The notes under the pieces are model-generated. The model had not been told where the DNA came from. It worked only from the letters and a program-made list of their open reading frames with translations, and ran no database searches. DNA of 32,000 bases, taken from assembly GCF_022836845.1 (NCBI RefSeq), contig NZ_JAJNNZ010000002.1, positions 15,033-47,032 of the forward strand, read 5' to 3'. The position numbers were made by a program, and so were the translations under genes. Of the stretch, positions 5,535 through 28,023 are shown piece after piece (position 1 is the stretch's first letter; each line of letters begins with the position of its first letter). The stretch comes from Vibrio gelatinilyticus. Lineage in GTDB: Bacteria; Pseudomonadota; Gammaproteobacteria; Enterobacterales; Vibrionaceae.

Positions 5535-5560
5535 AATAAATGGCACGCCCTGTAGGATTC
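5535..5560. repeat. Island left attachment repeat: 26-bp copy of the tRNA-Arg 3' end plus 6 downstream nt
   Basis: AATAAATGGCACGCCCTGTAGGATTC at 5535-5560 is identical to 27941-27966. The right-hand copy forms the 3' end of the intact tRNA. Confidence 0.9.
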
Positions 5561-7880: not shown

Positions 7881-9385
7881 TAAACATTGACCTCAATTTG
7901 CTCCAACCATTGTTGTTCTTGCAGCAGTTGCGCATTGAGAGCCAAAGATTCTTCCCCTAATACATGCTCTATGACTTTTTGGGTAGCTGGGTCTTTGGCA
8001 CTAATGGTTACCAAACCTTCTAAGTCATAACCCAGCGTTACTTCTATGCCATGATGTTTCTTCGGATTTTCAATTAAAAAACTGCTCACACCTAAGCTAA
8101 TCGGCTCTTCATCATCGCGTTGTTGTACTACCTCTAACACCATGCGAGTTTGATCATCACGATTGGTATAGAAAGTATGGCTCGCCAAAGCAGGCACTGG
8201 GCTGTTTTGAGCGATGAGAACTTTGACTTTAGGTTTACCATCACTACCAATCGCACGGAAACCAAGGTTGTATGAACATACACCTTGCAACGTTTTACTT
8301 TTCGTTGGTGACGTTACAAACATTTGCTCAGCCAGCAAGGCCGCGCCATAGGCCACCGCTTGGTGGGGTTGGCGACACACTAAGTCATTTGGCGAGCGCC
8401 CAGCGGCTTTTGCCACTTTATCCTTTACCAAAGGCAACAGCGATGACCCGCCCGTTAATAGCAAGGTATCAATAAATGACCAATCCATCCCCGCAGCTTG
8501 CAAGCAGTGCTCGCACACTTGCAATGTTTGTTCGACAAACTCTTCGAGCAGTTGATTAAACTTATCTTGAGTAAGGATGAAGTCTAGAGTTTGCCCAGCG
8601 ATGACCAAGGTTTTTGATAGATGGCTTTTACCTGGTTTTGAAAGTTTTACTTTGACCTCTTGAGCGTAACGGCGCAGCTTGGTTTGATTGGCAGCGTCCA
8701 ATTTACATTGACCATAACGACGCTCAAACTCATCCATGACATAAGCAATGATGATATCGTCGATATGCTTGCCACCGTGGGTATTGCTGCCTTGTGTGGC
8801 TAGCGCATATAAACCTTGCTCTCCGACTTGCAAAACCGTGGCATCAAAAGTGCCTCCGCCTAAATCGTAAACAAAATAGGTGTTATCACCTTGCTGCTGA
8901 TAGCCATAAAAGGTAGCTGCGGCCACGGGCTCTTCCACTAACTTAACGTGCTTTAATCCGGCCAACTTAGCGGCCTCTTTGGTGGCTTTTCTTTGACCAT
9001 CCGTAAAGTTGGCGGGTACGGCAATCAACGCACCTTCAATCAACTCAGGGGTTGCCGCTTGCACGTCTTTTAAAAGTTTCTTGAGCACCAGCGCCGATAG
9101 CCCCTGCGGCGACCAATCACGCCCTAACTCGTCGTGATAAACAACTTGAGATTGCCCTAATGCCAGCTTAAAAAAGCGTGCTTGGGTAAGCTCTGGCTCA
9201 TCATCGAGTAACTCTTCAAGCGCGCTGCCTACCAGCACTCCGTTTTCACTTATGTATACACATGATGGCGTACGATATTCATCCACTTCGTGACAGTCAT
9301 GAAAAAGAGCGGGTATACCCTGTGGGTTCAAATACGATACCAGCGAAAAGGTGGTACCTAAATCTATACCTATGTACATCATCAT
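7880..9385 (-). CDS. Hsp70-family ATPase (DnaK/HscC-like) with nucleotide-binding domain and beta substrate-binding domain but no helical lid
   Basis: Motifs GIDLGTTFS (phosphate 1), YDLGGGTFD (phosphate 2) and LLLTGGSSLLP (adenosine). The C-terminal part resembles SBD-beta (YNLGFRAIG...VLIAQNSPVP...FYT..DDQTRMVLEVVQ...IEVTLGYDLEGLVTISAKD). At 501 aa it is too short to include a lid. Confidence 0.88.
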   Translation of the reverse strand: MMMYIGIDLGTTFSLVSYLNPQGIPALFHDCHEVDEYRTPSCVYISENGVLVGSALEELLDDEPELTQARFFKLALGQSQVVYHDELGRDWSPQGLSALVLKKLLKDVQAATPELIEGALIAVPANFTDGQRKATKEAAKLAGLKHVKLVEEPVAAATFYGYQQQGDNTYFVYDLGGGTFDATVLQVGEQGLYALATQGSNTHGGKHIDDIIIAYVMDEFERRYGQCKLDAANQTKLRRYAQEVKVKLSKPGKSHLSKTLVIAGQTLDFILTQDKFNQLLEEFVEQTLQVCEHCLQAAGMDWSFIDTLLLTGGSSLLPLVKDKVAKAAGRSPNDLVCRQPHQAVAYGAALLAEQMFVTSPTKSKTLQGVCSYNLGFRAIGSDGKPKVKVLIAQNSPVPALASHTFYTNRDDQTRMVLEVVQQRDDEEPISLGVSSFLIENPKKHHGIEVTLGYDLEGLVTISAKDPATQKVIEHVLGEESLALNAQLLQEQQWLEQIEVNV

Positions 9386-9464: not shown

Positions 9465-12311
9465 TTAGCTCTTGAGCGCTTTACTACTTTGGCACAATTG
9501 CGAAATCTCTTTGACCATAGATTTGAGAGAGCGCTCCAAGTTAGTGCTATTTATTTCTATTGCGCCTGACTTAGACATAGAATCAACCCTATCATTAGAA
9601 CCCCAGATATTCATTGCTTTACTTGAAAAGTCAAAGCGATGCTCATACTCCTCATCATAACGCCAAGTGTTTACCCAGCTATATTCGGTATAAAAACTGC
9701 CATTACGATCCATGCGAAGATCACTACTGAGCTTATAAGTATGTTTCTCATATTCGACATATATAATGCACGGTCGACTAGCGGAGTATGAAACATCAAA
9801 GTCAGCTTTTAGCTTTCTGCGATGGGTTTCACTTGAATAAGAGGTATCCGTACTGTTTTCAAGCTTTGATTTTAAGCTCTTCATTAGCTTAACAACCTTT
9901 TCCATGTTGCTCTTATATTGCTTTTCCTGTTCAGCTTTTTTACGAGCTGCTTCTTCTTTGGCTTTTTTCAACCTAGCAGCCTTAGCCCATTTACTTTTGA
10001 TTTGAGCAATTTCAGCGTCATAACCGCCAAGTAAATCTCGAAAACTTTGCGAAGCTTGGCTATAGCTTTGCTTGGCATCTGAATATAACCCTTGCTTAGC
10101 TAAGCCTTGCCCTCTAGTTTGCAGGGCCTTGGCCTCTGTTTGTTTTGGTGATTGCAATGAGTATTTTTTGATTGCGGCCAACAATGCCGCTTGAGATTTT
10201 TGGGCGTTTATTTTTTCTGCGCTAATCAGTTGTGCTTGCTCTAATTCCTGCACCAGTAGTAGCTTGCTTTCAATAAACGCCTTGTTTGCTTCGGTAAACT
10301 GGCCTTCACTGCTTACTTTCAAGGCTAATTGGTAGGCGGATAGCCCTTGTTTTGCCTGCTCTGAATAGCCATAGCCCTGCTCAGTTAAATAGGCTTCAAG
10401 CTTAGTTTTCGCGTTTGTAGTTTGGATTTTTAGAGCATCGACCTCTTTGACTTGCATCAGTGCCTGCACCAGTAGTGGCTCACTTTCAGTAAATGCGTTG
10501 CTTGCTTGGGTAAACTGGCCTTCACTTCGCGCTTGACGAGCATTGTGATAAACCATTAACGCTTGCTTCACCGCCTCCGATTGACCATAACCTTGTTCAG
10601 AGAGGTAAGACTCAAGAGCGATTTTCGCCTTGGTGGCTTTAGTCTGGCTAACATACAGGGATTTACCGGCACCGAACTCTCGCCAAAGGTTTTGATAGCC
10701 CGTCTTAACTTCTTCAAGCAGCACTAACGCCTGAGCACTCTGCTGTTCATTGAGGTTTTGATTGCGAAGCAAGGTTTGCGCTTGAGCCAGTTTGCCTTCC
10801 AGCTCAGGGATGAGATTGCCATCAACCAAGTAATCTTTCGTCAAGCGTTCGGCAAGTCGAAGCGGTTCAAGGTTGTTACTGTTATTACGCTCGGCATCGC
10901 GTAAATCTGAAGTTAAATCACGCACGCCATTATCGAAGCGGCGAGCGATGGTTTTGATTTCCCCTTGCAGCCTACCTGCTTGCGCTTGATGCTCGGCAAT
11001 GAGGGCTTTATCGACTGGAGTTAAATCGGCAATAATGCTATCGAGCCAACCTTGCTGATAAGCAAAGCCAGTGCCAGCCAAAAGTGCAATGGAGAGCGCA
11101 ACAGGGACAAACTTGTTGCTGGTATGACTGCTGCTCTTGCTTATCTGAGTGATTTGGGCTTTAGCAGGCTTAGCCGTGCTAGTTAGAGCTTGATTGAAAG
11201 TCGTGATGTCAGCAAAGCGTTGGTCTGGCTTGTTCGATAACGCTTGGTCTACGGCATCGGATAGCCCTTGAGGCACATCTGCTCTTACTTCGCATAAACT
11301 TTCAATTCGACCTGTTGGCACTTCACCTGTCAGCATTTCATATAAAAGGACCGCTAAAGCGTATTGATCGGCACGACCATCAATCGTTCCCATTCCTTTG
11401 AGTTGCTCGGGTGCCATATAATAAGCAGTGCCTGTAGCGGCGCCTGTTTGGGTGCGCTGGGTGTTGCTGAGCACGCGAGCAATGCCAAAGTCCATTAGCT
11501 TTACGCTGCCATCTTCACATAAGAAGATGTTCTCTGGCTTAATATCACGATGCACTGTGTGCTGGTGAGCGTACTCAAGGGCATCGCAAAGTTTGTTGAT
11601 GATGTCTAAGGCATCATCGACTTCCATTTGCTGGTTGAGTTGCTGCTGATTGCTGAGCAAAGCACGCAGCTCTTGTCCTTCGAGCAGCTCCATGGTTAAG
11701 AATAGGTGCTCACCGTCTTGCTGAACATCGAAGACGTTAATGACGTTCGGGTGAGACAAATTGCTCGACAACTTGGCCTCGTCCATAAAACGCTGCTTAG
11801 CACGCTCACTTTGCGATAAATGCGGCAACACCATTTTAATCGCTATAGCTTGTTCCTTCACTTCATCAAAAGCAGCATAAACCACACCCATTCCGCCATG
11901 GCCGAGCACTTCGGTAATGCGGTAACGGTTAGCTAGCTTATGACCGATGGGTAAGGCTGTCACTTGACTTGCTGTCATCAAAGAACCAGTATCAAAATCG
12001 GTTCCAGATAGCGGCATATCCGCCATCATGGTTTGGCTCAGTGATGAACTAGCCGAAGGGGTCGATTGCGTCGTCTCTGGCTGGTTGTTAGCCTCATTAG
12101 CTAACTCAGTTAATAACCATTGAGCAACCTGCTCTAGGTCTACTTTTGATTGTCGAAACTTGTCCGCTAATGCTGGTGTGGGTGCTGAACTGATTTTATC
12201 ATCCAACAACCGATGCTTTTCCACTAACGCTTTTTTAATCGCAGCTTCTGGCTGACTGGCTAACGCTTCATCCGTTAGCCCAAGCTTTTGCTTTGCTTGA
12301 TTGATATCCAT
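9465..12311 (-). CDS. Receptor-type Hanks Ser/Thr kinase paralog 1. Order: J-like N-domain, kinase, one TM helix, helical repeats, unknown about 150-aa C-terminal domain
   Basis: Kinase motifs GHGGMGVVYAAFD, AIAIK, HRDIKPENIF, DFGIA and YYMAPE. One hydrophobic helix, FVPVALSIALLAGTGFAY, lies at about aa 401-417. There are two about 60-aa repeats (YL(S/T)EQGYG.SE..KQ.L..Y......SEGQFT.A..AF.ES..LLVQ). There is no FGE domain and no TR match. Confidence 0.9.
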   Translation of the reverse strand: MDINQAKQKLGLTDEALASQPEAAIKKALVEKHRLLDDKISSAPTPALADKFRQSKVDLEQVAQWLLTELANEANNQPETTQSTPSASSSLSQTMMADMPLSGTDFDTGSLMTASQVTALPIGHKLANRYRITEVLGHGGMGVVYAAFDEVKEQAIAIKMVLPHLSQSERAKQRFMDEAKLSSNLSHPNVINVFDVQQDGEHLFLTMELLEGQELRALLSNQQQLNQQMEVDDALDIINKLCDALEYAHQHTVHRDIKPENIFLCEDGSVKLMDFGIARVLSNTQRTQTGAATGTAYYMAPEQLKGMGTIDGRADQYALAVLLYEMLTGEVPTGRIESLCEVRADVPQGLSDAVDQALSNKPDQRFADITTFNQALTSTAKPAKAQITQISKSSSHTSNKFVPVALSIALLAGTGFAYQQGWLDSIIADLTPVDKALIAEHQAQAGRLQGEIKTIARRFDNGVRDLTSDLRDAERNNSNNLEPLRLAERLTKDYLVDGNLIPELEGKLAQAQTLLRNQNLNEQQSAQALVLLEEVKTGYQNLWREFGAGKSLYVSQTKATKAKIALESYLSEQGYGQSEAVKQALMVYHNARQARSEGQFTQASNAFTESEPLLVQALMQVKEVDALKIQTTNAKTKLEAYLTEQGYGYSEQAKQGLSAYQLALKVSSEGQFTEANKAFIESKLLLVQELEQAQLISAEKINAQKSQAALLAAIKKYSLQSPKQTEAKALQTRGQGLAKQGLYSDAKQSYSQASQSFRDLLGGYDAEIAQIKSKWAKAARLKKAKEEAARKKAEQEKQYKSNMEKVVKLMKSLKSKLENSTDTSYSSETHRRKLKADFDVSYSASRPCIIYVEYEKHTYKLSSDLRMDRNGSFYTEYSWVNTWRYDEEYEHRFDFSSKAMNIWGSNDRVDSMSKSGAIEINSTNLERSLKSMVKEISQLCQSSKALKS

Positions 12312-12334: not shown

Positions 12335-14188
12335 TTAGGATGCTTGTAACTGGTTGATCAGGTTTTCTACCTGACGTTGCAATTGATTAAGTGGTTGCGT
12401 CTGCATCTGCAGTTGGCGAAGTTGCTGTTCAACAACCGCAATACGCTGGTTGGCTTGTTTGGCCTCAAACTGTTGCTGCTGGCGTTTTTCTTCTACGTGG
12501 GTTTTGTGCTGACTCTCTAGCTCGCTGAGCCAATGACGTTTTTGCTGATCTAAAAAGCGGTTGATTTGATTCACTTTCAAACGGTTTGTTTCAGAGACCA
12601 ATCGCTTAGCGATGTTATTCACTTCTCCACGAACTTTATGCAGCTCTTTTTCCATTCTTGCGGCTTCTTCTTTTGGAAAAGAAATGTAAGAGTAAATCAC
12701 ACCAGCAAAAAATAGTGGCAAGCCGAGCAACATAAGCACCGAACGAAGATTAGGGCTAAGCGCCCCCAACACCATACCGACAAACATCAAGCCCATCATC
12801 GCTTGGCGACCAGCGCCTAATCGCGCCAAAAAACCTTGGTGCGGCAACTCACCTTGATAACGAATTTCTAGCCCCAGCACTTCTTGTAGCTCTTGTTGAA
12901 GGCGAGATTTAGAAAACGTGTGTGACGATAATTGATACTGCTCAGTTTGTGGGTGGTTCTTGACTAACGTAGTGATATTCGCCAAACCTTGTTCAAGTGT
13001 TAACACATCTTGAATCAAAAACTGGTCACTTTGCTGTTTGATCACTGCTAACAATTGCTTCTGATAGTCTTCACTTAAGCTGAGTTTTATGATTTTGTGC
13101 TGCTTTTGTTGGTCAAGTCCATCAACATCCAACTTTTCAATAAATGCCGCTAAGTTAACAGCGTTAGTTGCATTGGGCGTTTCGCGCTTACGGCTCAGTT
13201 CCGCTAGATTCTTACTTAGCTCATTAAACTCATCATTAATGCGCTGTTTTAACGTGCTATCAAGCATGATGGATTCGGCATTTCCATGGCCAGTACGATC
13301 CGTTTGGCGACTTTCACGTTTTTTACGATTGGTGAGCTTTTTCGCTTGCTGCTCAAATTCATCATTTAACGCATCAACCCCTTGAAGCAGAGCATTACTT
13401 TGACTTAGTAAGTTCAGTTTTTGACGAAGTGGGTCATTTGAGTTGGTGAGAATCTCTGGGATTGAAGTTTCCACCGCTTCGGTTAATAACTGTTCTGGCA
13501 AGCGTATTGGGCAACGAAAACGGTTGAACCAGCCATTGTCGGGTAGCTGTAACCCTTTGGTGAGATCAGGCACATGGATTAGTGGCCAAAAGCCTTGCAT
13601 TTGAGCCGTCAATTGCTCCAACTCTCTCGCATCTTCTTCGGTTAGCTCAGCTTCTGCTTCCCCCGCAATGGCTAGAACGTTACTGTTCATCAGCACCCGA
13701 GTTAATGCCGCTGGGTAGGTTTTTAGGGTGGTGATAGTATCGGGGATATAAATCGTTAGGTTTTGTAGGCCTTTTTCGCTTGGCACATCCAACTTGAGGC
13801 TTTGAGGCGTATCTCCAAAAGAGAGCCCTTCACCCAGCACCTTTTCTAAACTTGTCCAATCATCAAACTCTTGACGCGTGCCGTTCTGCTCTAGGCTGTA
13901 ACCTTGTTTTTTAAGCGTAATTTCTAGTAAACCGATCGCTTTTTCGTGATTAATGGCGAAAACACTATATTCTTGCCCATAGAGCCAGTTAATAGCCGCA
14001 TTTCGGGCAGTACCGGATAGCCCGATTAGGGTGAGGTGGAAATCCTGACTTTGGGACTGAGTAGCAAGGTGTTGAAACTTCTCGCTAAGCGGTGTTTGTG
14101 CTTGACCAAGCTCTAAAGCTTGACTGATATCTACCGCCTGTTGACTAGATGTACTGAACTGTTGGCGCAGCAGTGCCAAATTTTCCAT
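12335..14188 (-). CDS. 617-aa membrane protein: N-terminal dynamin/GTPase-like domain with degenerate P-loop, coiled coils and a central TM hairpin
   Basis: RBS AAGGATAGGA. LTLIGLSGTARNAAINWLYG looks like the dynamin-type xxVxGxxxxGKSTLINALLG but has A-R-N where G-K-S would be. IYIPDT resembles G3 DxxG. Two adjacent hydrophobic helices (MMGLMFVGMVLGAL...VLMLLGLPLFFAGVIYSYISF) are followed by a Q/E/R-rich coiled coil. The fold assignment is inference. Confidence 0.6.
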   Translation of the reverse strand: MENLALLRQQFSTSSQQAVDISQALELGQAQTPLSEKFQHLATQSQSQDFHLTLIGLSGTARNAAINWLYGQEYSVFAINHEKAIGLLEITLKKQGYSLEQNGTRQEFDDWTSLEKVLGEGLSFGDTPQSLKLDVPSEKGLQNLTIYIPDTITTLKTYPAALTRVLMNSNVLAIAGEAEAELTEEDARELEQLTAQMQGFWPLIHVPDLTKGLQLPDNGWFNRFRCPIRLPEQLLTEAVETSIPEILTNSNDPLRQKLNLLSQSNALLQGVDALNDEFEQQAKKLTNRKKRESRQTDRTGHGNAESIMLDSTLKQRINDEFNELSKNLAELSRKRETPNATNAVNLAAFIEKLDVDGLDQQKQHKIIKLSLSEDYQKQLLAVIKQQSDQFLIQDVLTLEQGLANITTLVKNHPQTEQYQLSSHTFSKSRLQQELQEVLGLEIRYQGELPHQGFLARLGAGRQAMMGLMFVGMVLGALSPNLRSVLMLLGLPLFFAGVIYSYISFPKEEAARMEKELHKVRGEVNNIAKRLVSETNRLKVNQINRFLDQQKRHWLSELESQHKTHVEEKRQQQQFEAKQANQRIAVVEQQLRQLQMQTQPLNQLQRQVENLINQLQAS

Positions 14189-16590: not shown

Positions 16591-17592
16591 TTATTGGGCT
16601 GACACAGCCCAATTCAAGGGAGAAATTATCGCCCTTCTCAAACCAACACTTTCACCATGAACAGCATGACCAATCCACGCCATCATCGACGCCTTGACGA
16701 AATCAAGAGGCAGCTTGCCTTGTATATAGCGCCGATGTTTTTGACGATACTTTCGCGCAAAACGATAGCCATTATCATTGCGCACCCAGCGACGCGTCGA
16801 ACTTACTTTATAGCCCAGCATATCGACTTTTTGTACTGTTCTTAGCAGGCTTTGCTTGCGAGGATGCAACACTAACCCAATTGCAACAAGTTCAGATTCA
16901 ATGACGTTTTGAATTGCCCACAATTGCGATTTACAGTTAGACATAATAGTTAAGTCATCAACGTAACGCAGATAAGCAGGTGATTGGCTTGCTACCTTGT
17001 GGTCTAGCTCATTAAGAAATAAATTAGCAAAACACTGACTGGTTAAATTACCCATTGGCAACCCGACCAACTGCTGAGGAGACTTTAATAGTTCTCGAAT
17101 CAAAAAAAGCAACGGCTTGTCTTTAATAACACGCTTGATTTTATCAAATAGTATTTTGTTATTTATACTGGCGAAAAAGGAACGTATATCGAGTTTCAGC
17201 ACATATCGATACTTTCGTGCCCATACCTGATAAACATTGACAGCCAAATGCGCCCCCTTACCTTTGCGGCAGGCGTAACTGTGATGATAGAACCGAGCCT
17301 CAAAGATAGGCTCCAGTACATTCATGATGGCATGGTGTAGTACCCTATCTCGGAACGGTGCCGCGCTAATCTCTCTTGGTTTTCTATCGAAAATAATAAA
17401 CTTTCGATAACCGCCAAACCGATAGCTGCCTGAGCGAAGCTCTGCTTGCATGGCAAATAGCTCCGCCTCTAACTGGTAACTAAATTGGGCCACTTTCACT
17501 TGATTGCGTTTGCCCTTAGCTGCCTTTTTATAGGCTAAATACAAATTTGAAAAGCTAGTGACTTTATCCCAAAGATTACCCAGTCTTTTCAT
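16591..17592 (-). CDS. DGR-type reverse transcriptase
   Basis: 333 aa. Motifs LDIRSFFASI, LPMGNLTSQCFANLFLNELD (the DGR-typical SQ in motif 4) and LRYVDDLTIM (YxDD). RBS GGGGTGAAGG. It lies directly downstream of the TR and avd. Confidence 0.92.
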   Translation of the reverse strand: MKRLGNLWDKVTSFSNLYLAYKKAAKGKRNQVKVAQFSYQLEAELFAMQAELRSGSYRFGGYRKFIIFDRKPREISAAPFRDRVLHHAIMNVLEPIFEARFYHHSYACRKGKGAHLAVNVYQVWARKYRYVLKLDIRSFFASINNKILFDKIKRVIKDKPLLFLIRELLKSPQQLVGLPMGNLTSQCFANLFLNELDHKVASQSPAYLRYVDDLTIMSNCKSQLWAIQNVIESELVAIGLVLHPRKQSLLRTVQKVDMLGYKVSSTRRWVRNDNGYRFARKYRQKHRRYIQGKLPLDFVKASMMAWIGHAVHGESVGLRRAIISPLNWAVSAQ

Positions 17593-17750: not shown

Positions 17751-17860
17751 CTGGACTAAACGAAAGCCATTATTGTTGTTGCGATTGCCAAGCGAATTGT
17801 TGTTGCGATTGGCTGAGCGCAGATTTCTCGGATTATTGTTCCAAGACCCGCCGCGAAGCA
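17751..17860 (-). repeat. DGR template repeat (TR)
   Basis: 93 of 110 positions are identical to the VR at 18342-18451. In the target frame it reads LRGGSW NNN P R N LRSA N R NNN SLG N R NNNN GFRLVQ, rich in AAC/AAT codons. It starts 36 nt after the avd stop and ends 158 nt before the RT start. Confidence 0.93.
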
Positions 17861-17895: not shown

Positions 17896-18255
17896 TTAAT
17901 TCTGTGACGCCCCCTTTCGCCAGCCTCCGACTTGATTGCCAATATCCACCACATATTGGCTGCCCGTTTCATAGCTTTTGATATTAATGACCTTTAGCTC
18001 AAAGCTAAGGCGCCATAAGTGGCGCAATAGGTTTAAATTCCGATTAGCCTTATCTAACCATTGCAACTTATGCCTGGTCGTTGCATACCCTGCCTCAACT
18101 AAGCAAGAGAGCAGTGCTAAGGCGCAACGTTCTATTTTTTCACCTAGGCTAAAGCGTCTATTCTTAGGGAACTGATCGAGCTTTGGTATTAGCCATATTA
18201 GATACTGGTGGCAGTTCTCCACCACAGCAATGCTGCCTGGCTTGTTCATTGTCAT
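17896..18255 (-). CDS. avd: Accessory variability determinant (Avd), four-helix-bundle / 23S rRNA-IVS protein family
   Basis: 119 aa. The sequence HQYLIWLIPKLDQFPKNRRFSLGEKIERCALALLSCLVEA is typical of the four-helix-bundle family. It occupies the canonical position between the target gene and the TR. Confidence 0.8.
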   Translation of the reverse strand: MTMNKPGSIAVVENCHQYLIWLIPKLDQFPKNRRFSLGEKIERCALALLSCLVEAGYATTRHKLQWLDKANRNLNLLRHLWRLSFELKVINIKSYETGSQYVVDIGNQVGGWRKGASQN

Positions 18256-18332: not shown

Positions 18333-21227
18333 TTATTGGCCCTGGACTAAACGAAAGCCAAAACTGTTGAAGCGAATGCCAAGCGAATAGTAGCTGCGAG
18401 GGGCTGAGCGCAGATAACTCGGAACACTGTACCAAGACCCGCCGCGAAGCACCCGTCTTTCACACTCGCCTGACTTCCAAGCGTTGCCGTTTCCGGGTGC
18501 GCCATGGTAGTTGTCATTCCAGCAATCTTGCGTCCATTCCCATACATTACCATGCATGTCATAGAGGCCAAAGCGGTTGGCTGAGAAGCTTTTTACGGGT
18601 GCGGTTTTGCTGTCATCCCAACGACTGCCACAGCCATCACAGTTGGCTCGATTACTACCAATGCTATTGCCCCAGCTGTATTTGCTTTGGCTCCCTGCGC
18701 GGGCAGCATATTCCCACTGCGCCTCACTCGGCAGGCTAAACTTAAGACCAGTCGTTTTATTCAGCCATGGAATAAACTGCTGGGTAATGTCTTTATAGCT
18801 GACGTTGATGACAGGGCGGCTGCCACGCCCCCAGTTTTGGTCATCTGGTCTATGCGAGCAGCCACCAGCGGCCACGCAAGCATCCCACTGGGCAAAGGTG
18901 ACTTCGTGTTCCATCATCTTAAAACTTTTCAGCGTCACGCGATGTACAGGCTTTTCATCGTCAACTTGACTATCATTGGAGCCCATTCTAAAGCTACCAG
19001 CGGGGATGGTCACTAACTTACCAACCAAGCGAACTGCTTTTGCCGCCTTCTCTCGTGCCGCCTTCTCTCGTGCCGCCTTCTCTATCGCCGCTTTAGCCGC
19101 TTTAGCCGCTTTAGCCGCTTTAGCCCATTGTGCTTCAACATTGGCGATATCACCAGATAACCCATTAAGCAATTGTTGGTAGTGTTGCGCAGCTTGGCTA
19201 TAGCTTTGCTTGGCTTCTGAATATAAGCCTTGCTTGGCTAAGCTTTGCCCTTTAGTTTGCAGGGTATTGGCCTCAGTTTGTTCTGGTGATTGCAATGAGT
19301 ACTTTTTGATTGCGGCCAGCAATGCGGCTTGAGCTTCTTCTGCTTTTATTTTTTCTGCGCTAATCAGTTTTGTTTGCAACAGTGCCTGCACCAGTAGCGG
19401 TTCACTCTCAGAAAACACCTTGTTTGCTTGAGTAAAATGCCCTTCACTGCGTGCTTTCAAGGCTAATTGGTAGGCGGATAGCCCTTGTTTTACTTTTTCG
19501 GATTGACCATAGCCTTGTTTAGCTAGATAGGCTTCAAGCTGGGCTTTCGCGCTGGTCGCCTTAGTTTGGCTGGCATAAAGACTTTTGCTGGCATTAAATT
19601 CTTGCCATAAGTTTTGATAGCCAGCTTTAACTTCTTCAAGTAGCAATAGTGCTTGAGCACTTTGCTGTTCATTAAGGTTTTGAGTACGTAACAAAGTTTG
19701 TGCTTGCGCAAGCTTACCTTCCAGCTCTGGGATGAGATTGCCATCAACCAAGTAATCTTTCGTTAAGCGCTGGGCAAGTCGAAGCGGTTCAAGGTTGTTA
19801 CTGTTATTACGCTCGGCATCGCGCAAATCCGAGGTTAAGTCACGCACCCCGTTATCGAAGCGGCGAGCGATGGTTTTGATTTCCCCTTGCAGCCTACCTG
19901 CTTGCGCTTGATGCTCGGCAATGAGGGCTTTATCGACTGGAGTTAAATCGGCAATAATGCTATCGAGCCAACCTTGCTGATAAGCAAAGCCGCTCCCCGC
20001 CATCACGGCCAGAGAAAGCGCAATTGGCACCAGTTTGTTGCTGCCTTTTGGATAAGTTGTCGGTTGCGTTTTTAGATTGGAAGTATTCGATATATTGCTT
20101 TTGATACCTATGGTTGTAGCAAGGGCTAATTTGAGTTCAGCCGCGTCACTTGGCCTGTCTTCGGCTTTTGTCTCTAAAGCTTTGTCAACAGCATCTGACA
20201 AGCCTTGTGGTATTTGGTCATTCAGCTCGGTAAGCGACTTAAAACGCCCCGTTGGCACATCTCCTGACAGTAATTCATAAAGCATCACCCCGAGGGCATA
20301 AATATCTGCTCTCTGGTCAACTTTACTGGTGCCTTTGAGTTGTTCAGGTGCCATGTAATAGGCAGTCCCTGTTGCAGCGCCAGTTTGGGTGCGTTGGGTA
20401 TTGCTCATTACGCGCGCAATACCAAAATCCATCAACTTAACCTCACCTTCTTCATCAAGCCAGATATTCTCAGGTTTGATATCACGGTGAACCGTCTGTT
20501 TATGGGCGTAGCTTAGAGCGTCACATAAGGAATTGGCAATGTTCATTGCCTCATCTACATCAAAGGGCACATTAGCAGCTTGACGAGCTTCAATTAACGC
20601 TCGTAAGTCTTGGCCTTCAAGGAGCTCCATGGTGAGAAAAACTTGGTCACCTTGTTGCTGTACATCGAACACATTAACGATATTTGGATGCGATAACTGG
20701 CTTGAGAGCTTGGCTTCATCCATAAAACGAGATAACGCCTTAGGGTTATTCACCAAGTGTGGTAACAGCGTTTTAATCGCGATGCTCTGCTCTTTGATGT
20801 TATCAAATGCTTGGTAGACAACGCCCATTCCACCTTGACCGAGCACACCCTCAATACGATAACGCCCAGCCAGCTCATACCCAGCCCGTAAGGTATTGAC
20901 AGTGCCTTGCGATACCGAGCTAAACTGAGTGCCCGACAAGGGCATATCCGCCATCATGGTTTGGCTGATTGAAGGAGATTCTGTTGCTAAAGCTGATGGC
21001 TTGGCTGCATTGTCCGCCAAACTTGCTCTTAATACTCGAGCCGCTTTTTCAGCATCGTTGAGACGCTGTTGATACTTATCGACTAACGCTTTCGTCGGGG
21101 CGGTTTCAATTTTTTCACGCAGCATCATTTGCTGCTTGGTTAATGCTTCGTTGATTTCATCGTTGGAAAGGGGCGCGCTTTGGTCACTACCTAGGCTAAG
21201 GTATTGCCTGGCTTGGCTTAACTCCAT
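18333..21227 (-). CDS. DGR target: receptor-type Hanks Ser/Thr kinase paralog 2. Order: J-like N-domain, kinase, one TM helix, helical repeats, Ala/Lys linker, C-terminal FGE-sulfatase/C-type-lectin-fold domain carrying the VR
   Basis: Kinase motifs GQGGMGVVYQAFD, AIAIK, HRDIKPENIW, DFGIA and YYMAPE. The TM helix LVPIALSLAVMAGSGFAY lies at about aa 399-416. The FGE-type domain starts at about aa 736 (nt about 18336-19022): IPAGSFRMGS, PVHRV.L..F.M...EVT..QW, LPSEAQWEYAARAG, GLYDMHGNVWEWTQD and RVLRGGSW...RSA.R....GFRLV. Confidence 0.92.
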   Translation of the reverse strand: MELSQARQYLSLGSDQSAPLSNDEINEALTKQQMMLREKIETAPTKALVDKYQQRLNDAEKAARVLRASLADNAAKPSALATESPSISQTMMADMPLSGTQFSSVSQGTVNTLRAGYELAGRYRIEGVLGQGGMGVVYQAFDNIKEQSIAIKTLLPHLVNNPKALSRFMDEAKLSSQLSHPNIVNVFDVQQQGDQVFLTMELLEGQDLRALIEARQAANVPFDVDEAMNIANSLCDALSYAHKQTVHRDIKPENIWLDEEGEVKLMDFGIARVMSNTQRTQTGAATGTAYYMAPEQLKGTSKVDQRADIYALGVMLYELLSGDVPTGRFKSLTELNDQIPQGLSDAVDKALETKAEDRPSDAAELKLALATTIGIKSNISNTSNLKTQPTTYPKGSNKLVPIALSLAVMAGSGFAYQQGWLDSIIADLTPVDKALIAEHQAQAGRLQGEIKTIARRFDNGVRDLTSDLRDAERNNSNNLEPLRLAQRLTKDYLVDGNLIPELEGKLAQAQTLLRTQNLNEQQSAQALLLLEEVKAGYQNLWQEFNASKSLYASQTKATSAKAQLEAYLAKQGYGQSEKVKQGLSAYQLALKARSEGHFTQANKVFSESEPLLVQALLQTKLISAEKIKAEEAQAALLAAIKKYSLQSPEQTEANTLQTKGQSLAKQGLYSEAKQSYSQAAQHYQQLLNGLSGDIANVEAQWAKAAKAAKAAKAAIEKAAREKAAREKAAKAVRLVGKLVTIPAGSFRMGSNDSQVDDEKPVHRVTLKSFKMMEHEVTFAQWDACVAAGGCSHRPDDQNWGRGSRPVINVSYKDITQQFIPWLNKTTGLKFSLPSEAQWEYAARAGSQSKYSWGNSIGSNRANCDGCGSRWDDSKTAPVKSFSANRFGLYDMHGNVWEWTQDCWNDNYHGAPGNGNAWKSGECERRVLRGGSWYSVPSYLRSAPRSYYSLGIRFNSFGFRLVQGQ
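18342..18451 (-). repeat. DGR variable repeat (VR), codons about 926-962 of the target kinase
   Basis: There are 17 mismatches to the TR, all at template A positions on the coding strand. 13 codons are changed: N/R to Y, S, V, S, Y, P, S, Y, Y, I, F, S, F. Confidence 0.93.
19041..19122 (-). repeat. In-frame tandem repeats inside the kinase 2 linker: 15-bp unit in about 3 copies (19041-19085), then 9-bp unit GCCGCTTTA in 4 copies (19087-19122)
   Basis: Read directly from the sequence. The repeats encode AKAAKAAKAAKA and AAREKAAREKAA. Confidence 0.85.
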
Positions 21228-23638: not shown

Positions 23639-24205
23639 CTATGATTCAATCCCTTCTGAGATGTTCAATGCATCTTCAATTTCTACACCCAGATAACGAA
23701 TAGTATTCGTCTAATTTCACGTGCCCTAGTAATAGTTGTACAGCCCGTATATTTTTAGTTCGAGCGTAAATCAATGTCGCCTTGGTGCGGCGCATGGAAT
23801 GCGTTCCATAGAGATAGGGATCGTAGCCAAGTTCCGTTGCCCAGCGGCGAATAATGGTGGCATAGCAACTATAGCTCAAAGGCCTCCCTTGTTTACGGGG
23901 ACTGGGAAACAGATAGTCTTGAGCCGAAAGTTGACTATAAATCAACCATTAAGTTAATGATTGTGCAGTGCGTGAAGTGTTCTCAAACTGTACCTCTCTG
24001 CCCGTTTTACTTTGGCTGTAAAGCACACGATCTTGAATCACACCACCGGAAGAAATATCCCTCACTTTCATTCTTAGCAAGTCACAAGAACGCAACTTGC
24101 AATCGATGGCGAGATTGAGCAGGGCCAATTCCATGATATTGCCTTCGATTTCTAGTCTAGTGCGAATTCGCCAGATATCTTCGAGCTTGAAGGGTGCCGA
24201 CGGTA
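23639..24205 (-). pseudogene. Degraded tyrosine recombinase (small phage-integrase-family type): 5'-truncated and frameshifted at least twice
   Basis: Three frames together read …PFKLEDIWRIRTRLEIEGNI-MELALLNLAIDCKLRSCDLLRMKVRDI…, …GTHSMRRTKATLIYARTKNIRAVQLLLGH… and, after a further shift, IRYLGVEIEDALNISEGIES-stop. The R, HxxR and H motifs are recognisable. The N-terminus is cut off at the IS fragment. Confidence 0.7.
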
Positions 24206-24207
24206 GG

Positions 24208-24363
24208 TTACGTAGCTTTATTGAAGCTCAACAAGAAATTACTCGATACATAATTCAGTATTACTGTCAGGTCAGGCCCCATCAATATAATGGAGGGCTG
24301 ACACCCAACGAGTCAGAACGATTGTTCTGGTTAAACTCTAAGAGCGTGGCCAATATCAGTTGA
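24208..24363 (+). mobile_element. 3' fragment of an IS3-family transposase (OrfB C-terminus)
   Basis: …RSFIEAQQEITRYIIQYYCQVRPHQYNGGLTPNESERLFW… matches the conserved tail of IS3-family integrase-core transposases (xYN..RPH..L.g.TP...E). No catalytic core or inverted repeats are present. Confidence 0.55.
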
Positions 24364-24366
24364 CCA

Positions 24367-24573
24367 CTACATACCGCTCCCCCAAGCTGAGTTAAGGTTT
24401 AAGACATAGTTCCTTTCCCTGTCTTCCCCTTCACGGCTCTCATCAAAGCCTTGGGATACTAGAAATCGTGTTAGAAACTCCGCATATCTCACGTGCCCTA
24501 ACATGTCTTCTGGGAAGTGCTCCCCATCAATCTCTATACTTGCTGACCAATTGAACTTAATATCTGCAGCCAT
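24367..24573 (-). pseudogene. KAP-family P-loop NTPase, N-terminal 68 codons only, truncated inside the Walker A motif
   Basis: GGAGGG RBS plus ATG at 24573. It reads MAADIKFNW…DMLGHVRYAEFLTRFLV…RNYVLNLNSAWGSG-M-stop. KAP NTPases carry G.WGSGK(T/S) at this point. The reading frame ends at the IS3 fragment boundary. Confidence 0.5.
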
Positions 24574-24704
24574 AGTCCCTCCTACAAATAGACTAATGGT
24601 ATCTTGACTGCATATGGTTTTAAATTGAAAGGCTAAAAATGGAAAGTATGAGGTAGTGCTAGTTTTATCAGGACGATAATCGACTTTATGATAACGAAGC
24701 AAAC

Positions 24705-25334
24705 TCACCAATCAATGTAATATGTCACCTTATCATCTTCTTGGCTCTCTCTATCCCGAATATTTATGGTCTGCTCAATCATCTTTATTTGAACTTTGTC
24801 TTTTTCGACAAGTATCGCATCCCGCCCAAGCTTAGATAGGGTTGCCGATAAGGACTCGATACGAGCAATAGTTCGCTCTTCTGCCTCCATGCTCTTAAGT
24901 AACAGTTCTGAAAGCGCGACTTTCATTTCAACGTCACTGCACTCTCTGACCTGAGCTTCTATATTTGAGCGATACTTCATAACCGATACCAAACGAGAAC
25001 GGCACGCCAGTAACTCATCCTCTAAGCTTTTTACTTGAAGGGCAAGCTCCACATCATCTTCATTTAATAGACTGGAGTAACCGCCATGTTTACGTGCAAT
25101 TTGATTGCCTTTAGAAAATGAGGTTTGGTTCGCTTTCTGAGGCTGAGACTCGATCACATTTTGCCGTTTCGTTTCTGGTGAGTTTTTTGCGACCTGCTTT
25201 ATATCCTTAACACTGATTTGCTTTCTAGCAGATTGGTAGTCCACTTGGTTTTGCTGACACCACCCTTTTAAACTAACTCCCGTTTCTAAGTATGCCTGTT
25301 GGTATAACTGCCGATTTTTGTTCCAATCCGTCAC
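24705..25334 (-). CDS. Hypothetical protein (209 aa); weak resemblance to YjcR-type small terminase/HTH proteins
   Basis: GTG start with AAGGAGAA RBS. The N-terminus is HTH-like (YLETGVSLKGWCQQNQVDYQSARKQIS). A KGNQIARKHGGYS motif recalls the GN.NA.KHG.YS repeats of some TerS proteins. The C-terminus is a coiled coil. The functional call is weak. Confidence 0.4.
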   Translation of the reverse strand: MTDWNKNRQLYQQAYLETGVSLKGWCQQNQVDYQSARKQISVKDIKQVAKNSPETKRQNVIESQPQKANQTSFSKGNQIARKHGGYSSLLNEDDVELALQVKSLEDELLACRSRLVSVMKYRSNIEAQVRECSDVEMKVALSELLLKSMEAEERTIARIESLSATLSKLGRDAILVEKDKVQIKMIEQTINIRDRESQEDDKVTYYIDW

Positions 25335-25358
25335 AAGATTCTCCTTACTGAAATTTAT

Positions 25359-25400
25359 CCTCCCCTCCGCCTCTTGTGTAGGGAAGAAGCGGAGGGGAGG
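25359..25400 (-). terminator. 12-bp perfect stem CCTCCCCTCCGC, 18-nt loop, GCGGAGGGGAGG, between the RepA-like gene and the TerS-like gene
   Basis: Read directly from the sequence. On the minus strand ATAAATTT follows, which is only a weak U-run. It may be an attenuator, processing site or partial terminator. Confidence 0.45.
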
Positions 25401-25405
25401 AGTGT

Positions 25406-26467
25406 TTAGGCTTTATCCACCATGCAGTGCAGTTGGCCATGTTGTTCAATAACTACGCCTCTATTCTGTAACCTCTGTAATGAGCGACTAAAGTTCTTAA
25501 CTGGATAACCGAGAGCTTTGAAGTCATCTCTTATAATTTCTCTTACCGTCGACTCACCTGAGGCAGATCTAGAGCGTATTATTTCCCACAGAGCAACTTG
25601 GACAGGACTCATCTCACTTTTTTCCGGATGACTATCAACATCTGGTACCTCTCTTGCTTCATCACTATCGACGCTCAATGAGTAGATATTCTTCCCCTCA
25701 TGATTAGTGAAAACCATTACAGGCTTTAAGGTATAAGCAGCAGGTTTTATGGGCTGGTCATCTTTCATTTTCTCGCAACTGAGTGTCAGACTCTCGCCTT
25801 CGGAATCATCACTCGGATTTTTCACCACTTTAAACTCAAAATCACAAGCAGCACGCAACGCAGAACTACCTCGCGCAGCATTGGCTTCGTTCTTCCCACT
25901 ATGGTGAACGATAAGCACTGAGACTTTCATCATGGCTTTCAGCATGTCACAGCCGGAAACAAAGAAGTTCATATCCCGCGTACTGTTCTCATCTGCACCA
26001 TTAAAGCACCGTGCTAATGTATCGAAGACCACCAGCTCTATCTGAGTATTTTCAACCTCCTCTATTTGTTTAATCGTCGACATCAACGCATTAAGTGAAC
26101 GAGGGTCTGCGATGTGTACAGGCTCATATATTGAGTAAAAGTTTTTTGCTGCCCCTCCCTTGAGGTTGGCACGCTCCCACGCTTTAATCCGACGCGGAGC
26201 ACCTATTCCACCCTCCGCTACCACATACAATACAGCTGCTTTCTTAACGTTACGGCCACTCCATGTCTTTCCTGTCGCAATGTGTGCGGCCCAGTCCATA
26301 ACAAGAAAGGACTTAAATGAACCACTCGGGCCATAGACGACACCAAATGAGTTCGCAGGCAAGATGCCTTCAATGAGGTAGTCGACTTGTACGTCATACC
26401 CCGTTGATCCTGATGTCCATGGGTAGAGTCTTTCGTTGCTCTGCGATACATAACTAACCATGTTCAC
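25406..26467 (-). CDS. RecA-fold AAA_25/RepA-like ATPase with C-terminal winged-helix domain (island replication/initiator-type protein)
   Basis: Walker A GPSGSFKSF, Walker B ELVVFDTLAR and LIVHHSGK. The C-terminus REIIRDDFKALGYPVKNFSRSLQRLQNRGVVIE is wHTH-like. It overlaps the upstream ORF by 14 nt. Confidence 0.75.
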   Translation of the reverse strand: MNMVSYVSQSNERLYPWTSGSTGYDVQVDYLIEGILPANSFGVVYGPSGSFKSFLVMDWAAHIATGKTWSGRNVKKAAVLYVVAEGGIGAPRRIKAWERANLKGGAAKNFYSIYEPVHIADPRSLNALMSTIKQIEEVENTQIELVVFDTLARCFNGADENSTRDMNFFVSGCDMLKAMMKVSVLIVHHSGKNEANAARGSSALRAACDFEFKVVKNPSDDSEGESLTLSCEKMKDDQPIKPAAYTLKPVMVFTNHEGKNIYSLSVDSDEAREVPDVDSHPEKSEMSPVQVALWEIIRSRSASGESTVREIIRDDFKALGYPVKNFSRSLQRLQNRGVVIEQHGQLHCMVDKA

Positions 26468-26810
26468 CTCTCAAATTTACTCGTTTATAATCAGCAATCT
26501 TCTGTTTTAGCTCAGACTTACTGGTGAACGAACCATCCCAATCTGCTCTCATTACCAGTTGTGAATTAACGTACTGGTTATAGATATACTCAGCCCCATC
26601 TCGGGTCAGAATCAACCTTCTGTCGGACCCTTTAAAGAAGAAGTCTTTAACTTGAACGTGAGGCTTATAACCCCCCCGCACTTTCTTGAGCAGACGCCCG
26701 TCAGCTAAGTCTTCTAGCGTCAGCCTCTCATCTAAACCATTCATGAACATCATCGCTACTAGTAAAGAGTTAGCTGGTGTATTTGGTTTTATATAAGACA
26801 TAATCAGCAC
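26454..26810 (-). CDS. Hypothetical protein (about 115 aa)
   Basis: It lies in the operon between alpA and the ATPase. The likely true start is the ATG at 26801 (MSYIKPN), preceded by AAGGTAGG. Confidence 0.55.
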   Translation of the reverse strand: MLIMSYIKPNTPANSLLVAMMFMNGLDERLTLEDLADGRLLKKVRGGYKPHVQVKDFFFKGSDRRLILTRDGAEYIYNQYVNSQLVMRADWDGSFTSKSELKQKIADYKRVNLRGEHG

Positions 26811-27017
26811 CTACCTTGTCTGTGTAACAACATTGGACTCAATGAAGGCATCAAGGTCAGACTGTCGATAAAAGACCTTGCGCCCGACTTTGATAAATGG
26901 AAGCTGGTAGCGGCCTGTGGAGGCCCAGACAGCGAGAGTGCCCTCGGTAACACCGAGGTACTCTGCGGCTTGTTTGCGGTTTAAACGGGTTGTATTGGGA
27001 TTTATGCAAATTGGCAT
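26811..27017 (-). CDS. alpA: AlpA-family (MerR-like HTH) prophage regulatory/excisionase-type protein
   Basis: 68 aa. LNRKQAAEYLGVTEGTLAVWASTGRYQLPFIKVGRKVFYRQSDLDAFI is the typical AlpA/Xis HTH pattern. Confidence 0.85.
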   Translation of the reverse strand: MPICINPNTTRLNRKQAAEYLGVTEGTLAVWASTGRYQLPFIKVGRKVFYRQSDLDAFIESNVVTQTR

Positions 27018-27069
27018 GAGCTACTCCTTTTAATTGGTAGTAACGCCAACTTAACCAAGCACTTTGCGG

Positions 27070-27822
27070 CTACTCAGGGTTGCCGCAATTTTTTTTAATT
27101 TTCTCCGCTATTTCTTTGATCGATGGAATCTCGAATGTATCGCTAGTACTCTTTTTAATTAGCTCAGGTCGAATTAATTGAGCGGCTCGGGTTTTAGTAT
27201 CTGTAGGGTTCGTGGCGAAGTGTTCTTTCGCTAGATTTTGCGCTTCCTTCTGCCACCAACCAGAAAACTCACTTCTATTTTTGTTACTGCGCGATGAGAC
27301 ATCACAGCGCCTTTGTGCCATCAAAACTTGCTTATCTGTTCGCGCCACTAACAAGTTATTTAAATGCCCAGAAAGCAAAAAACAAAGTTCAACTGCCGAG
27401 TCAGAATCACCTTTAAGCAAACAGTGGACGACTTGCCGAAGCCTAAGCAACGCGTGTCCAAGGGCACTCAAATAATTAGATTTTTCATCACTAGCTAAGA
27501 GTATCAGCGCATGCTCCAGCAAAACGGGGTTGTTCTCGTACTCGTATGTACCATTGATTTCCTCATAACCTAACTCCAACAAAAGTAGCTTTATTTCTTG
27601 ATATGTTTGCTGGATTTGCGTTTTCAATATAGGCCGTTCGAGCCTCTCTAGTAGCACTAGGTCTAAGCCGGGTAAAAGCCTTGCTTCTTTAACGAGTGAC
27701 GCTAGATACTCTTCATCGATTATGGGGTGCTTAACAATAAGTGGGCTGGTGTAGTATTTGAACGACGCGTTATTAGCTCTAGCTCTAGACGGGTACTTTT
27801 CTTGATGTTCGACGAAGCTCAT
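27070..27822 (-). CDS. Hypothetical protein (250 aa), first gene inside the right island end
   Basis: A clean ORF co-oriented with alpA. I recognise no motifs. Confidence 0.55.
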   Translation of the reverse strand: MSFVEHQEKYPSRARANNASFKYYTSPLIVKHPIIDEEYLASLVKEARLLPGLDLVLLERLERPILKTQIQQTYQEIKLLLLELGYEEINGTYEYENNPVLLEHALILLASDEKSNYLSALGHALLRLRQVVHCLLKGDSDSAVELCFLLSGHLNNLLVARTDKQVLMAQRRCDVSSRSNKNRSEFSGWWQKEAQNLAKEHFATNPTDTKTRAAQLIRPELIKKSTSDTFEIPSIKEIAEKIKKNCGNPE

Positions 27823-27940: not shown

Positions 27941-27966
27941 AATAAATGGCACGCCCTGTAGGATTC
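27941..27966. repeat. Island right attachment repeat (within and adjacent to the intact tRNA-Arg 3' end)
   Basis: Identical to 5535-5560. Confidence 0.9.
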
Positions 27967-28023
27967 GAACCTACGACCACATCCTTAGAAGGGACGTGCT
28001 CTATCCAGCTGAGCTAAGGGCGC
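27947..28023 (-). tRNA. tRNA-Arg (anticodon UCU)
   Basis: I folded the reverse complement GCGCCCTTAGCTCAGCTGGATAGAGCACGTCCCTTCTAAGGATGTGGTCGTAGGTTCGAATCCTACAGGGCGTGCCA by hand. The acceptor stem is GCGCCCT/AGGGCGT, the D stem GCTC/GAGC, the anticodon stem CGTCC/GGATG with loop CTTCTAA, and the T stem GTAGG/CCTAC with TTCGAAT. It ends in an encoded CCA. Confidence 0.92.

Follow-up and report, generated by a model that had tools for sequence, protein, structure and literature searches.

A 32,000-nucleotide stretch of the Vibrio gelatinilyticus genome (contig NZ_JAJNNZ010000002.1, positions 15,033 to 47,032; hereafter the window) carries a diversity-generating retroelement (DGR), and the available evidence supports as its sole local target a Hanks-type Ser/Thr kinase fused to a domain of the C-type-lectin (CLec)/FGE-sulfatase fold. 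The best overall explanation of the locus, to which we assign a probability of about 0.7, is that the DGR diversifies the tip of a PknB-style bitopic receptor Ser/Thr kinase. What is new here is a conserved, mobile and apparently undescribed module in which kinases of this type travel with an Hsp70-like ATPase and a phosphatase; the kinase-CLec architecture itself has already been catalogued. Coordinates of all features are collected in Table 1.

A canonical DGR with a kinase as target

The element is a canonical DGR, with the target gene and its variable repeat (VR), the accessory protein bAvd, the template repeat (TR) and the reverse transcriptase (RT) following one another in that order, all on the minus strand. 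The TR (LLRGGSWNNNPRNLRSANRNNNSLGNRNNNNGFRLVQ) and the VR differ at 17 positions, every one of them a TR adenine (17/31 adenines vs 0/79 other bases; Fisher p=7e-12). These changes are nearly confined to codon positions 1 and 2 and touch exactly 13 codons (aa 933, 934, 935, 937, 938, 943, 945, 946, 947, 951, 953, 955 and 956), the number of variable residues given by a first-pass annotation made from the sequence alone. The TR has the capacity to encode ~1e16 protein variants, and no variant of its AAY codons is a stop codon. A degenerate pattern built from the TR matches the window twice, once at the TR and once at the VR, and shuffled sequence not at all. At the 3' end of the repeat the adenines at aa 960 and 962 are unmutated, which fits an initiation of mutagenic homing site. 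The accessory protein scores 85.6 bits against NCBIfam DivGenRetAVD (cutoff 80), and the open reading frame (ORF) of the RT is intact and contains both the YVDD motif and the DGR-type GNLTSQ motif.

The DGR is apparently functional and may well be active at present. Outside the variable sites, TR and VR agree at every one of the remaining 93 nucleotides of the 110-nt repeat, so no decay has taken place since the last homing event; additionally, the cassette still has an intact RT, Avd and TR and keeps its AAY codons. These features speak against a fossil or silent DGR, in which the VR would have been written once and would now be fixed, leaving a receptor that is not hypervariable today. We consider that alternative unlikely, even with what can be said for it: only a single genome copy is at hand, a metagenome scan returned no VR variants, a result that counts against ongoing diversification, and a related island in V. 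methylphosphonaticus has no DGR and only a VR remnant, which means that such cassettes do get lost.

The diversified codons lie in a domain that the first-pass annotation had placed at about 18336-19022 and that Pfam FGE-sulfatase delimits in close agreement (Table 1). By sequence the domain matches PvdO (5hha; E=1e-40; Foldseek TM-score 0.77 normalised to target) and the DGR variable protein TvpA (2y3c; E=2.5e-18). When it is aligned to human FGE (2aft), the FGE segment with the catalytic cysteine pair, C336/C341, falls opposite the target VR stretch GGSWYSVPSYL---RSAPRS, which has no cysteine. Since the VR occupies the place of the catalytic-cysteine stretch and lacks cysteines, the C-terminal domain is best read as a binding fold and not as an enzyme. 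Across a 61-sequence family, the 13 variable positions all rank within the top 17 of 228 domain columns by variability (Mann-Whitney p=1e-9), and they are interleaved with the invariant scaffold residues R928, G930, R944, G957 and R959; variable sites set among an invariant scaffold are the known pattern of CLec-fold VRs. Judged from these alignments, the whole kinase-FGE subfamily is hypervariable at the same sites, and the 13 variable residues of the target would be expected to cluster on one face of the fold. The third base of the homologues' variable codons is C or T in 73% vs 61%, a weak enrichment.

The kinase domain retains the complete set of Hanks motifs (GQGGMG130, IAIK with K152, HRDIKPEN247, DFG267, APE293 and DIYALG308), as had been claimed for it at first, and is predicted to be active. 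Its top matches, in sequence as well as in fold, are Stk1/PknB of S. aureus and PknB/PknA of M. tuberculosis. Against the PknB_PASTA equivalog (NCBIfam NF033483) the protein reaches 273 bits, through the kinase part only, where the cutoff is 450, and it thus falls outside that family. In a full-length AlphaFold2 model built with 61 homologues (mean predicted local distance difference test score, pLDDT, 85), a three-helix N-terminal domain (aa 3-74) and a disordered linker (76-109) precede the kinase (120-374), which is followed by a low-confidence region (375-429), nine long helices (433-735) and the FGE fold (738-964). The first-pass annotation had described the connection between kinase and variable domain as ~320 aa of helical repeats. 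Its helical character is borne out by the model, in which aa 433-735 exceed a pLDDT of 90; the repeats are not, as none were detected within the sequence of the target linker.

Membrane topology and the N-terminal domain

In the original description the kinase was expected to be cytoplasmic and the variable domain periplasmic, the protein having one hydrophobic helix at aa ~399-416 and no N-terminal signal peptide. The target indeed has no signal-like hydrophobic stretch at its N terminus, and aa 399-417 form its only hydrophobic window. At the level of the family the proposed topology is well supported. A single hydrophobic helix lies ~140 aa after the HRD motif in 117/122 homologues, with a median Kyte-Doolittle value of 2.29 and with 91% at 1.8 or above. 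Among the 122 homologues, the flank preceding the helix has 2.4 K/R residues and the one following it 1.2, and cysteine density per 100 aa is 0.35 before the helix and 1.04 after it. The number of cysteines after the helix is even in 96% of homologues (mostly 6, 2, 4 or 8) and before it is spread over 0, 1, 2 and 3; even counts C-terminal of the helix are what pairing into disulfides, in a compartment that is oxidising, would lead one to expect. Furthermore, in paralogous family members the C-terminal domain has been swapped for TonB_C, FKBP, redoxin, Sel1, MORN or DUF1566 domains, several of which are typically extracytoplasmic. For the kinase family, a bitopic topology with the N terminus inside and the C terminus outside is, from these sequence features, very likely.

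For the Vibrio protein itself the same topology is probable. Its segment aligns with a bona fide transmembrane (TM) helix of Alcanivorax P0041 and with the QQGWLD motif that follows it, a positive-inside bias is kept (3 K/R before the segment, 0-1 after it), and the C-terminal domain has 6 cysteines, among them the invariant C902 and C922, vs 1 in the first 398 residues. PvdO, the nearest solved relative of the C-terminal domain, is periplasmic. Three observations pull the other way. First, the Kyte-Doolittle value of the target segment is 1.44 (1.44-1.49 in target and paralogue within the Vibrio clade, and <1.4 in P0001) vs 2.29 for the family. Second, Hessa-type sums, computed with approximate scale values, are +5.0 to +5.6 for the Vibrio proteins (~+5.6 for the target), which lies between the family median of -0.3 and the ~+8.3 of the best windows of the soluble kinase domain. 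Third, AlphaFold assigns aa 375-429 a pLDDT <50 and builds no helix there. Hence the hydrophobic segment stands as the sole one in the protein while its identity as a TM helix is marginal, and the division of the protein between cytoplasm and periplasm holds for the family and is weaker for this member than had been stated.

These same three observations are what a cytoplasmic or peripheral sensor would predict, that is, a protein whose TM helix has degenerated in the Vibrio clade to the point of not crossing the membrane and whose variable CLec domain detects a ligand inside the cell, for example a protein of an invader, as has been proposed for most DGR targets of cyanobacteria and Thiohalocapsa. 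Moreover, the published kinase-CLec targets are for the most part predicted to be cytosolic (Vallota-Eastman et al. 2020, PMC7517822; Dore et al. 2024, PMC10907252). What renders this alternative improbable is that the segment is homologous in both position and sequence to the strong TM helices of 117/122 relatives, together with the charge bias, the cysteine distribution and the relationship to PvdO noted above.

The second distinctive feature of the protein is its N-terminal domain, which also opens the paralogous kinase of the island (12090-12311) and which we regard as a lead towards a J-like, Hsp70-coupled module. The family consensus, LGL...A....I..A...K......K...APT.ALK.KF, resembles J-domain helices I and II. 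When a profile of 34 such domains is compared with PDB sequences, the matches are mostly J-domains (best E=0.0027), and Pfam DnaJ is the most frequent match of the individual members (11/34, best E=5.5e-5). A hidden Markov model of the domain matches kinase ORFs only. An Hsp70 gene is present in 7/10 loci with J-like kinases vs 0/20 loci with kinases that have no such domain (Fisher p=6e-5), and a conserved protein that we designate U617 is present in 9/10 vs 0/20. Several results count against the assignment, beginning with these co-occurrence figures, which are raw counts that disregard the kinship of the loci. Additionally, hhalign gives only 38% probability against E. coli DnaJ; the HPD tripeptide is absent from the domain, which has a near-invariant APT (aa 43-45) in the loop between helices II and III instead; and a Foldseek search with the domain model (pLDDT 91) found no significant match and no J-domain fold.

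Relation to known systems and proposed mode of action

The first-pass annotation overstated the novelty of a kinase-linked DGR target. A search of DGR catalogues for a kinase joined to an FGE/CLec domain finds this architecture in four published surveys: as architecture b12 in Wu et al. (2018, PMC5758913), among cyanobacterial DGR targets, where the kinase is the most common domain (Vallota-Eastman et al. 2020, PMC7517822), among the kinase-CLec targets of Dore et al. (2024, PMC10907252), and among the PknD/Pkn1-type targets with a CLec domain in a 2024 BMC Genomics survey (PMC11661182). The novelty is for this reason lower than claimed, and NCBI even has a standard product name for the kinase-FGE fusion. 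Our literature search found no experimental study of a kinase DGR target and no description of the module formed with Hsp70, PP2C and U617.

The published cyanobacterial and other kinase-CLec proteins share with the Vibrio target an N-terminal Hanks kinase, a C-terminal FGE/CLec domain with the VR, and a cassette of RT, Avd and TR; they have been read as tunable signalling or sensor proteins, and paralogues without a VR are common among them. They are mostly predicted to be cytosolic, however, and in many cases linked to STAND/MoxR-vWA conflict systems or to multicellular hosts, whereas the gammaproteobacterial subfamily of the Vibrio protein is set apart by a TM segment, a long helical stalk, a J-like domain, a fixed Hsp70/PP2C/U617 neighbourhood and residence on a mobile island. 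The PASTA kinases PknB, Stk1 and PrkC resemble the target in its probable bitopic layout, with a cytoplasmic Hanks kinase, one TM segment, an extracytoplasmic ligand domain and a cognate Stp1-like PP2C; they differ in that the sensor of the target is a DGR-diversified CLec domain borne on a 300-aa helical stalk, and in the extra N-terminal J-like domain. TvpA of Treponema denticola and Mtd of Bordetella phage BPP-1 share the CLec/FGE fold, the C-terminal VR and an AAY-rich TR, but the former is a lipoprotein and the latter a tail-fibre tip, and neither is joined to an enzymatic signalling domain. PvdO of Pseudomonas aeruginosa (5hha), the nearest solved structure of the C-terminal domain, has the FGE fold without being an FGE; unlike the target, it is a stand-alone protein of pyoverdine maturation that is neither hypervariable nor fused to a kinase.

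Two further assignments were considered and rejected. The conflict systems of Kaur et al. (2020), defined by a MoxR AAA+ protein with vWA (plus VMAP/iSTAND) or by a DO-GTPase with GAP1, find no counterpart here, as Pfam detected no AAA_3/MoxR, VWA, NACHT or GTPase domain among the 27 main ORFs, a search that does not reach GAP1/DO-GTPase, which have no Pfam model and for which U617 is a possible case. The anti-phage kinases PD-T4-6, MAD6 and Mokosh MkoA match by PADLOC over aa ~110-400 only, which is the generic kinase domain and therefore tells nothing about function, and NCBIfam MAD6 yields 182 against a cutoff of 460.

If the target is a bitopic receptor kinase, its mode of action might be as follows. 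Adenine-specific mutagenic retrohoming would rewrite 13-14 codons, with ~1e16 possible variants, for the C-terminal binding face of a CLec-fold domain that is not an enzyme and resembles PvdO and TvpA. The J-like domain and the kinase would lie in the cytoplasm, connected through one membrane span and a helical stalk of ~300 aa to the variable domain in the periplasm. Binding of an extracytoplasmic ligand could then alter the oligomeric or activation state of the kinase, which would phosphorylate partners in the cytoplasm (candidates are the Hsp70-like ATPase and the membrane protein U617 encoded alongside it), and the co-encoded PP2C would reset the signal. In this way the DGR would re-tune what the receptor of a given lineage recognises, leaving the signalling part untouched. 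The role served could be envelope surveillance or defence, or else environmental or particle sensing.

The least probable of the alternatives makes of the variable domain an adhesin or anchor, tethering a kinase complex that is otherwise regulated, for instance by Hsp70 or PP2C, to variable envelope or particle structures; it accords with the view of Roux (2021, PMC8144416), whose main text does not mention kinases, that membrane-bound aquatic targets serve in adhesion or in the binding of particles, and with the exchange of paralogue C-terminal domains described above, but an inner-membrane anchor in a Gram-negative cell cannot reach external particles without crossing the outer membrane, of which there is no sign, and fusion to an intact kinase that has its own phosphatase is how receptor kinases are usually built.

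A receptor kinase diversified at its tip would be of practical value. Many DGR targets have been catalogued, and very few come with a measurable downstream effect; here, phosphorylation offers a direct biochemical read-out of VR diversification, since the target combines an intact kinase with a phosphatase of its own and a few fixed partner genes. The host is a culturable Vibrio, and the compact 22-kb island could be moved to a model host. If the extracytoplasmic topology is correct, the system would constitute a tractable bacterial transmembrane receptor of programmable specificity, and the recurrent Hsp70/J-like/PP2C/U617 neighbourhood is by itself a candidate for a new signalling or defence module. 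More speculatively, J-like receptor kinase, Hsp70-like ATPase, PP2C and U617 might together form an undescribed, horizontally mobile envelope-surveillance system of marine Gammaproteobacteria. Such a system would have a modular sensor (FGE/CLec, TonB_C, Sel1, FKBP and others) that is somatically reprogrammed by DGRs in several lineages, and would amount to a bacterial counterpart of a transmembrane antigen receptor that diversifies, here coupled to a chaperone-type effector; we hold this to be possible and put it forward tentatively.

The island, its module and their recurrence

The DGR and its target reside on an island of ~22.4 kb (about 5561-27940) flanked by housekeeping genes. The first-pass annotation had overlooked this integrative island, as well as the paralogous kinase, the Hsp70/PP2C/U617 module and the J-like domain. 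Within the island, the region downstream of the DGR encodes a Q/A/S-rich protein on the opposite strand, U617, a second kinase, the Hsp70-like ATPase and the PP2C phosphatase.

Table 1. Features of the window, with the target and the DGR listed first and the rest of the island after them
Feature	Position	Strand	Basis or remarks
DGR target gene, 964 aa: J-like N-terminal domain, Hanks Ser/Thr kinase, hydrophobic segment, helical stalk, FGE/CLec-fold domain with VR	18333-21227	-	ORF, Pfam, AlphaFold
N-terminal helical domain, aa 1-74, J-domain-like at sequence level	21006-21227	-	Profiles, model
Hanks-type kinase domain, aa 120-374, Thr-rich activation loop	20106-20870	-	Pfam Pkinase aa 123-341, E=1.3e-50
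Hydrophobic segment, aa 399-417 (LVPIALSLAVMAGSGFAYQ); marginal here, homologous to strong TM helix in relatives	19977-20033	-	Hydropathy, alignment
All-helical stalk, aa 433-735, long helices	19023-19931	-	AlphaFold pLDDT >90
FGE-sulfatase/C-type-lectin-fold domain, aa 737-961, PvdO-like, 6 Cys, without FGE catalytic cysteines	18345-19019	-	Pfam FGE-sulfatase E=1.1e-55
VR	18342-18451	-	110 nt; 13 diversified codons; aa 926-963 of 964-aa target
bAvd accessory protein	17896-18255	-	Pfam bAvd E=9.5e-16
TR	17751-17860	-	110 nt; between Avd and RT; 13 AAY codons and one AGA
DGR reverse transcriptase	16591-17592	-	RVT_1 E=3.8e-26; YVDD210; LPMGNLTSQ178; 100% identical to P0121 of Vibrio sp. ZSDZ34 (now V. 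gelatinilyticus)
Q/A/S-rich protein, 623 aa	14619-16490	+	Sequence
U617, conserved protein with C-terminal TM hairpin and coiled coil; travels with J-like kinases	12335-14188	-	Sequence
Paralogous receptor-type kinase (P0002), 948 aa, 55% identical to target, non-FGE C-terminal domain	9465-12311	-	Alignment
Hsp70-like ATPase, 501 aa, lid-less	7880-9385	-	Pfam, NCBIfam
PP2C Ser/Thr phosphatase, Stp1-like	7167-7880	-	Pfam, NCBIfam
Tyrosine integrase of island	5736-7031	+	Pfam
Distal attachment (att) site, 26-bp direct repeat, exact copy of 27941-27966	5535-5560		Repeat search
tRNA-Arg(TCT), 27947-28023, with proximal 26-bp att repeat at its 3' end	27941-28023	-	tRNA and repeat search

The paralogous kinase has the N-terminal domain, the hydrophobic segment and the stalk in common with the target, differs from it in the C-terminal domain, and carries an extra unit of ~75 aa in its linker. 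Target aa 399-540 (19620-20033) correspond to paralogue aa 401-542 (10690-11111), and target aa 413-540 are almost identical in the two proteins. The DNA is exactly identical over 132 nt (target aa 413-456), and over the next ~80 codons the changes are almost only synonymous. Recent gene conversion on its own accounts for this near-identity only partly, given the almost exclusively synonymous differences beyond the 132 nt. The pattern suggests a gene-conversion tract combined with very strong purifying selection on the membrane-proximal stalk. The kinase domains of the two proteins are ~65% identical, and the contrast between this value and the near-identity of the stalk suggests a common partner, or heterodimers formed through the part of the stalk next to the membrane.

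A sister version of the module occurs in V. methylphosphonaticus (locus L001), where the window's Q/A/S-rich protein, U617, kinase, Hsp70 and PP2C have counterparts with 86-94% identity (94% for the Q/A/S-rich protein) and where no RT or Avd lies within 10 kb. The kinase of this module bears an FGE domain. Between the kinase-FGE gene and Hsp70, at 13376-13623 of the locus, lies a stop-interrupted remnant of a VR and its 3' flank, which matches the 3' end of the target at 81% identity; 15/25 of its differences from the TR of the window fall at TR adenines, and it looks like the relic of a DGR target that was lost or relocated. Because this locus keeps the module without RT or Avd and retains a VR remnant, the segment comprising the DGR and its target is best seen as an insertion or deletion in a shared, recombining island.

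The C-terminal part of the window's paralogue, aa ~660-948 (9465-10339), is not homologous to its counterpart in the V. methylphosphonaticus orthologue, which is an FGE domain, and its last ~150 aa have no Pfam match. As the two genes are otherwise 92% identical, the sensor domain has evidently been replaced.

Of the remaining products of the island, U617 has no Pfam or NCBIfam match, and a word-based homologue search retrieved only three proteins. It has a conserved TM hairpin at about aa 470-520 and an alpha/beta-like N-terminal region without a P-loop, and it may represent a degenerate membrane protein of the dynamin or mitofusin kind. The Q/A/S-rich protein may be part of the module. It is of low complexity and extremely rich in these three residues, and its gene lies where the local GC content is 0.55 and the AT skew +0.49.

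The tRNA-proximal part of the island (23676-27822) contains fragments of an integrase pseudogene (23676-24134), a gene for an AAA_25 protein (25406-26467) and small ORFs, one of which (24097-24363) resembles, by eye, the C-terminal end of a transposase. This part has the appearance of a decayed element, P4-like or a satellite, that became joined to the kinase/DGR island.

The module occurs together with a DGR in at least three other gammaproteobacterial lineages. Relatives of the RT with 51-57% identity, examined where they lie on long contigs, have the same arrangement in a metagenome-assembled genome (MAG) of the Cellvibrionaceae (L080/L081) and in the metagenomic lineages L082/L083 and L084/L085. 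In loci of the L081, L082 and L084 type, a kinase-FGE gene with a strong TM helix (Kyte-Doolittle 2.3-2.7) is followed by bAvd, TR and RT, and a U617-like protein of ~620-660 aa or a Q/A/S-rich protein is encoded nearby. Hsp70 is present in L081 and L084, PP2C in L081, and a Q/A/S-rich analogue stands beside the DGR-kinase locus in L082. The TR/VR pairs of these relatives, identified by local alignment, are likewise adenine-specific, with 16/17, 19/19, 15/16 and 19/19 mismatches at A; a fixed 180-nt ungapped scan of 79 loci was dropped, as it would miss the window's own repeat.

An earlier impression that the kinase-FGE family is not linked to DGRs, drawn from the finding of an RT within 10 kb in 0/21 species-representative loci, was overturned by the three DGR-linked loci and by a signature found in Aliikangiella. 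The isolate genomes of Aliikangiella, Alcanivorax and CP017689 carry arrays of 2-3 kinase-FGE paralogues with U617-like genes, joined in Aliikangiella by an Hsp70 gene, and none of these arrays has an RT within 10 kb. In Aliikangiella sp. IMCC44653 (L090, 10001-12640 and 19282-21822), the VRs of the paralogues differ at 24 positions, 23 of which are codon positions 1 or 2; the scaffold bases of the VRs are identical and the 180 nt upstream are 25% diverged, the same pattern as in the positive control L084. Such a VR signature without a nearby RT implies a remote, shared TR and RT acting in trans. No signature of a remote TR was found in the paralogues of Alcanivorax or Paraglaciecola, and the kinase-FGE subfamily thus appears to be served by DGRs often, though not always. 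The RT clade, in turn, is not exclusive to kinases, since RTs with 51-56% identity serve targets in which a Peptidase_C14 (caspase) domain is joined to the FGE domain (L086, 7411-9177; L087, 673-2712); the clade thus serves one kind of variable domain fitted with different signalling or effector heads.

Finally, at a distance of 8 kb from its DGR, the Cellvibrionaceae MAG encodes a second FGE protein (L081, 18049-19770), of 573 aa, which has a signal peptide but lacks a kinase. In its C-terminal region, 19/29 mismatches to the TR fall at adenines, and the protein may be a second, older or remote target.

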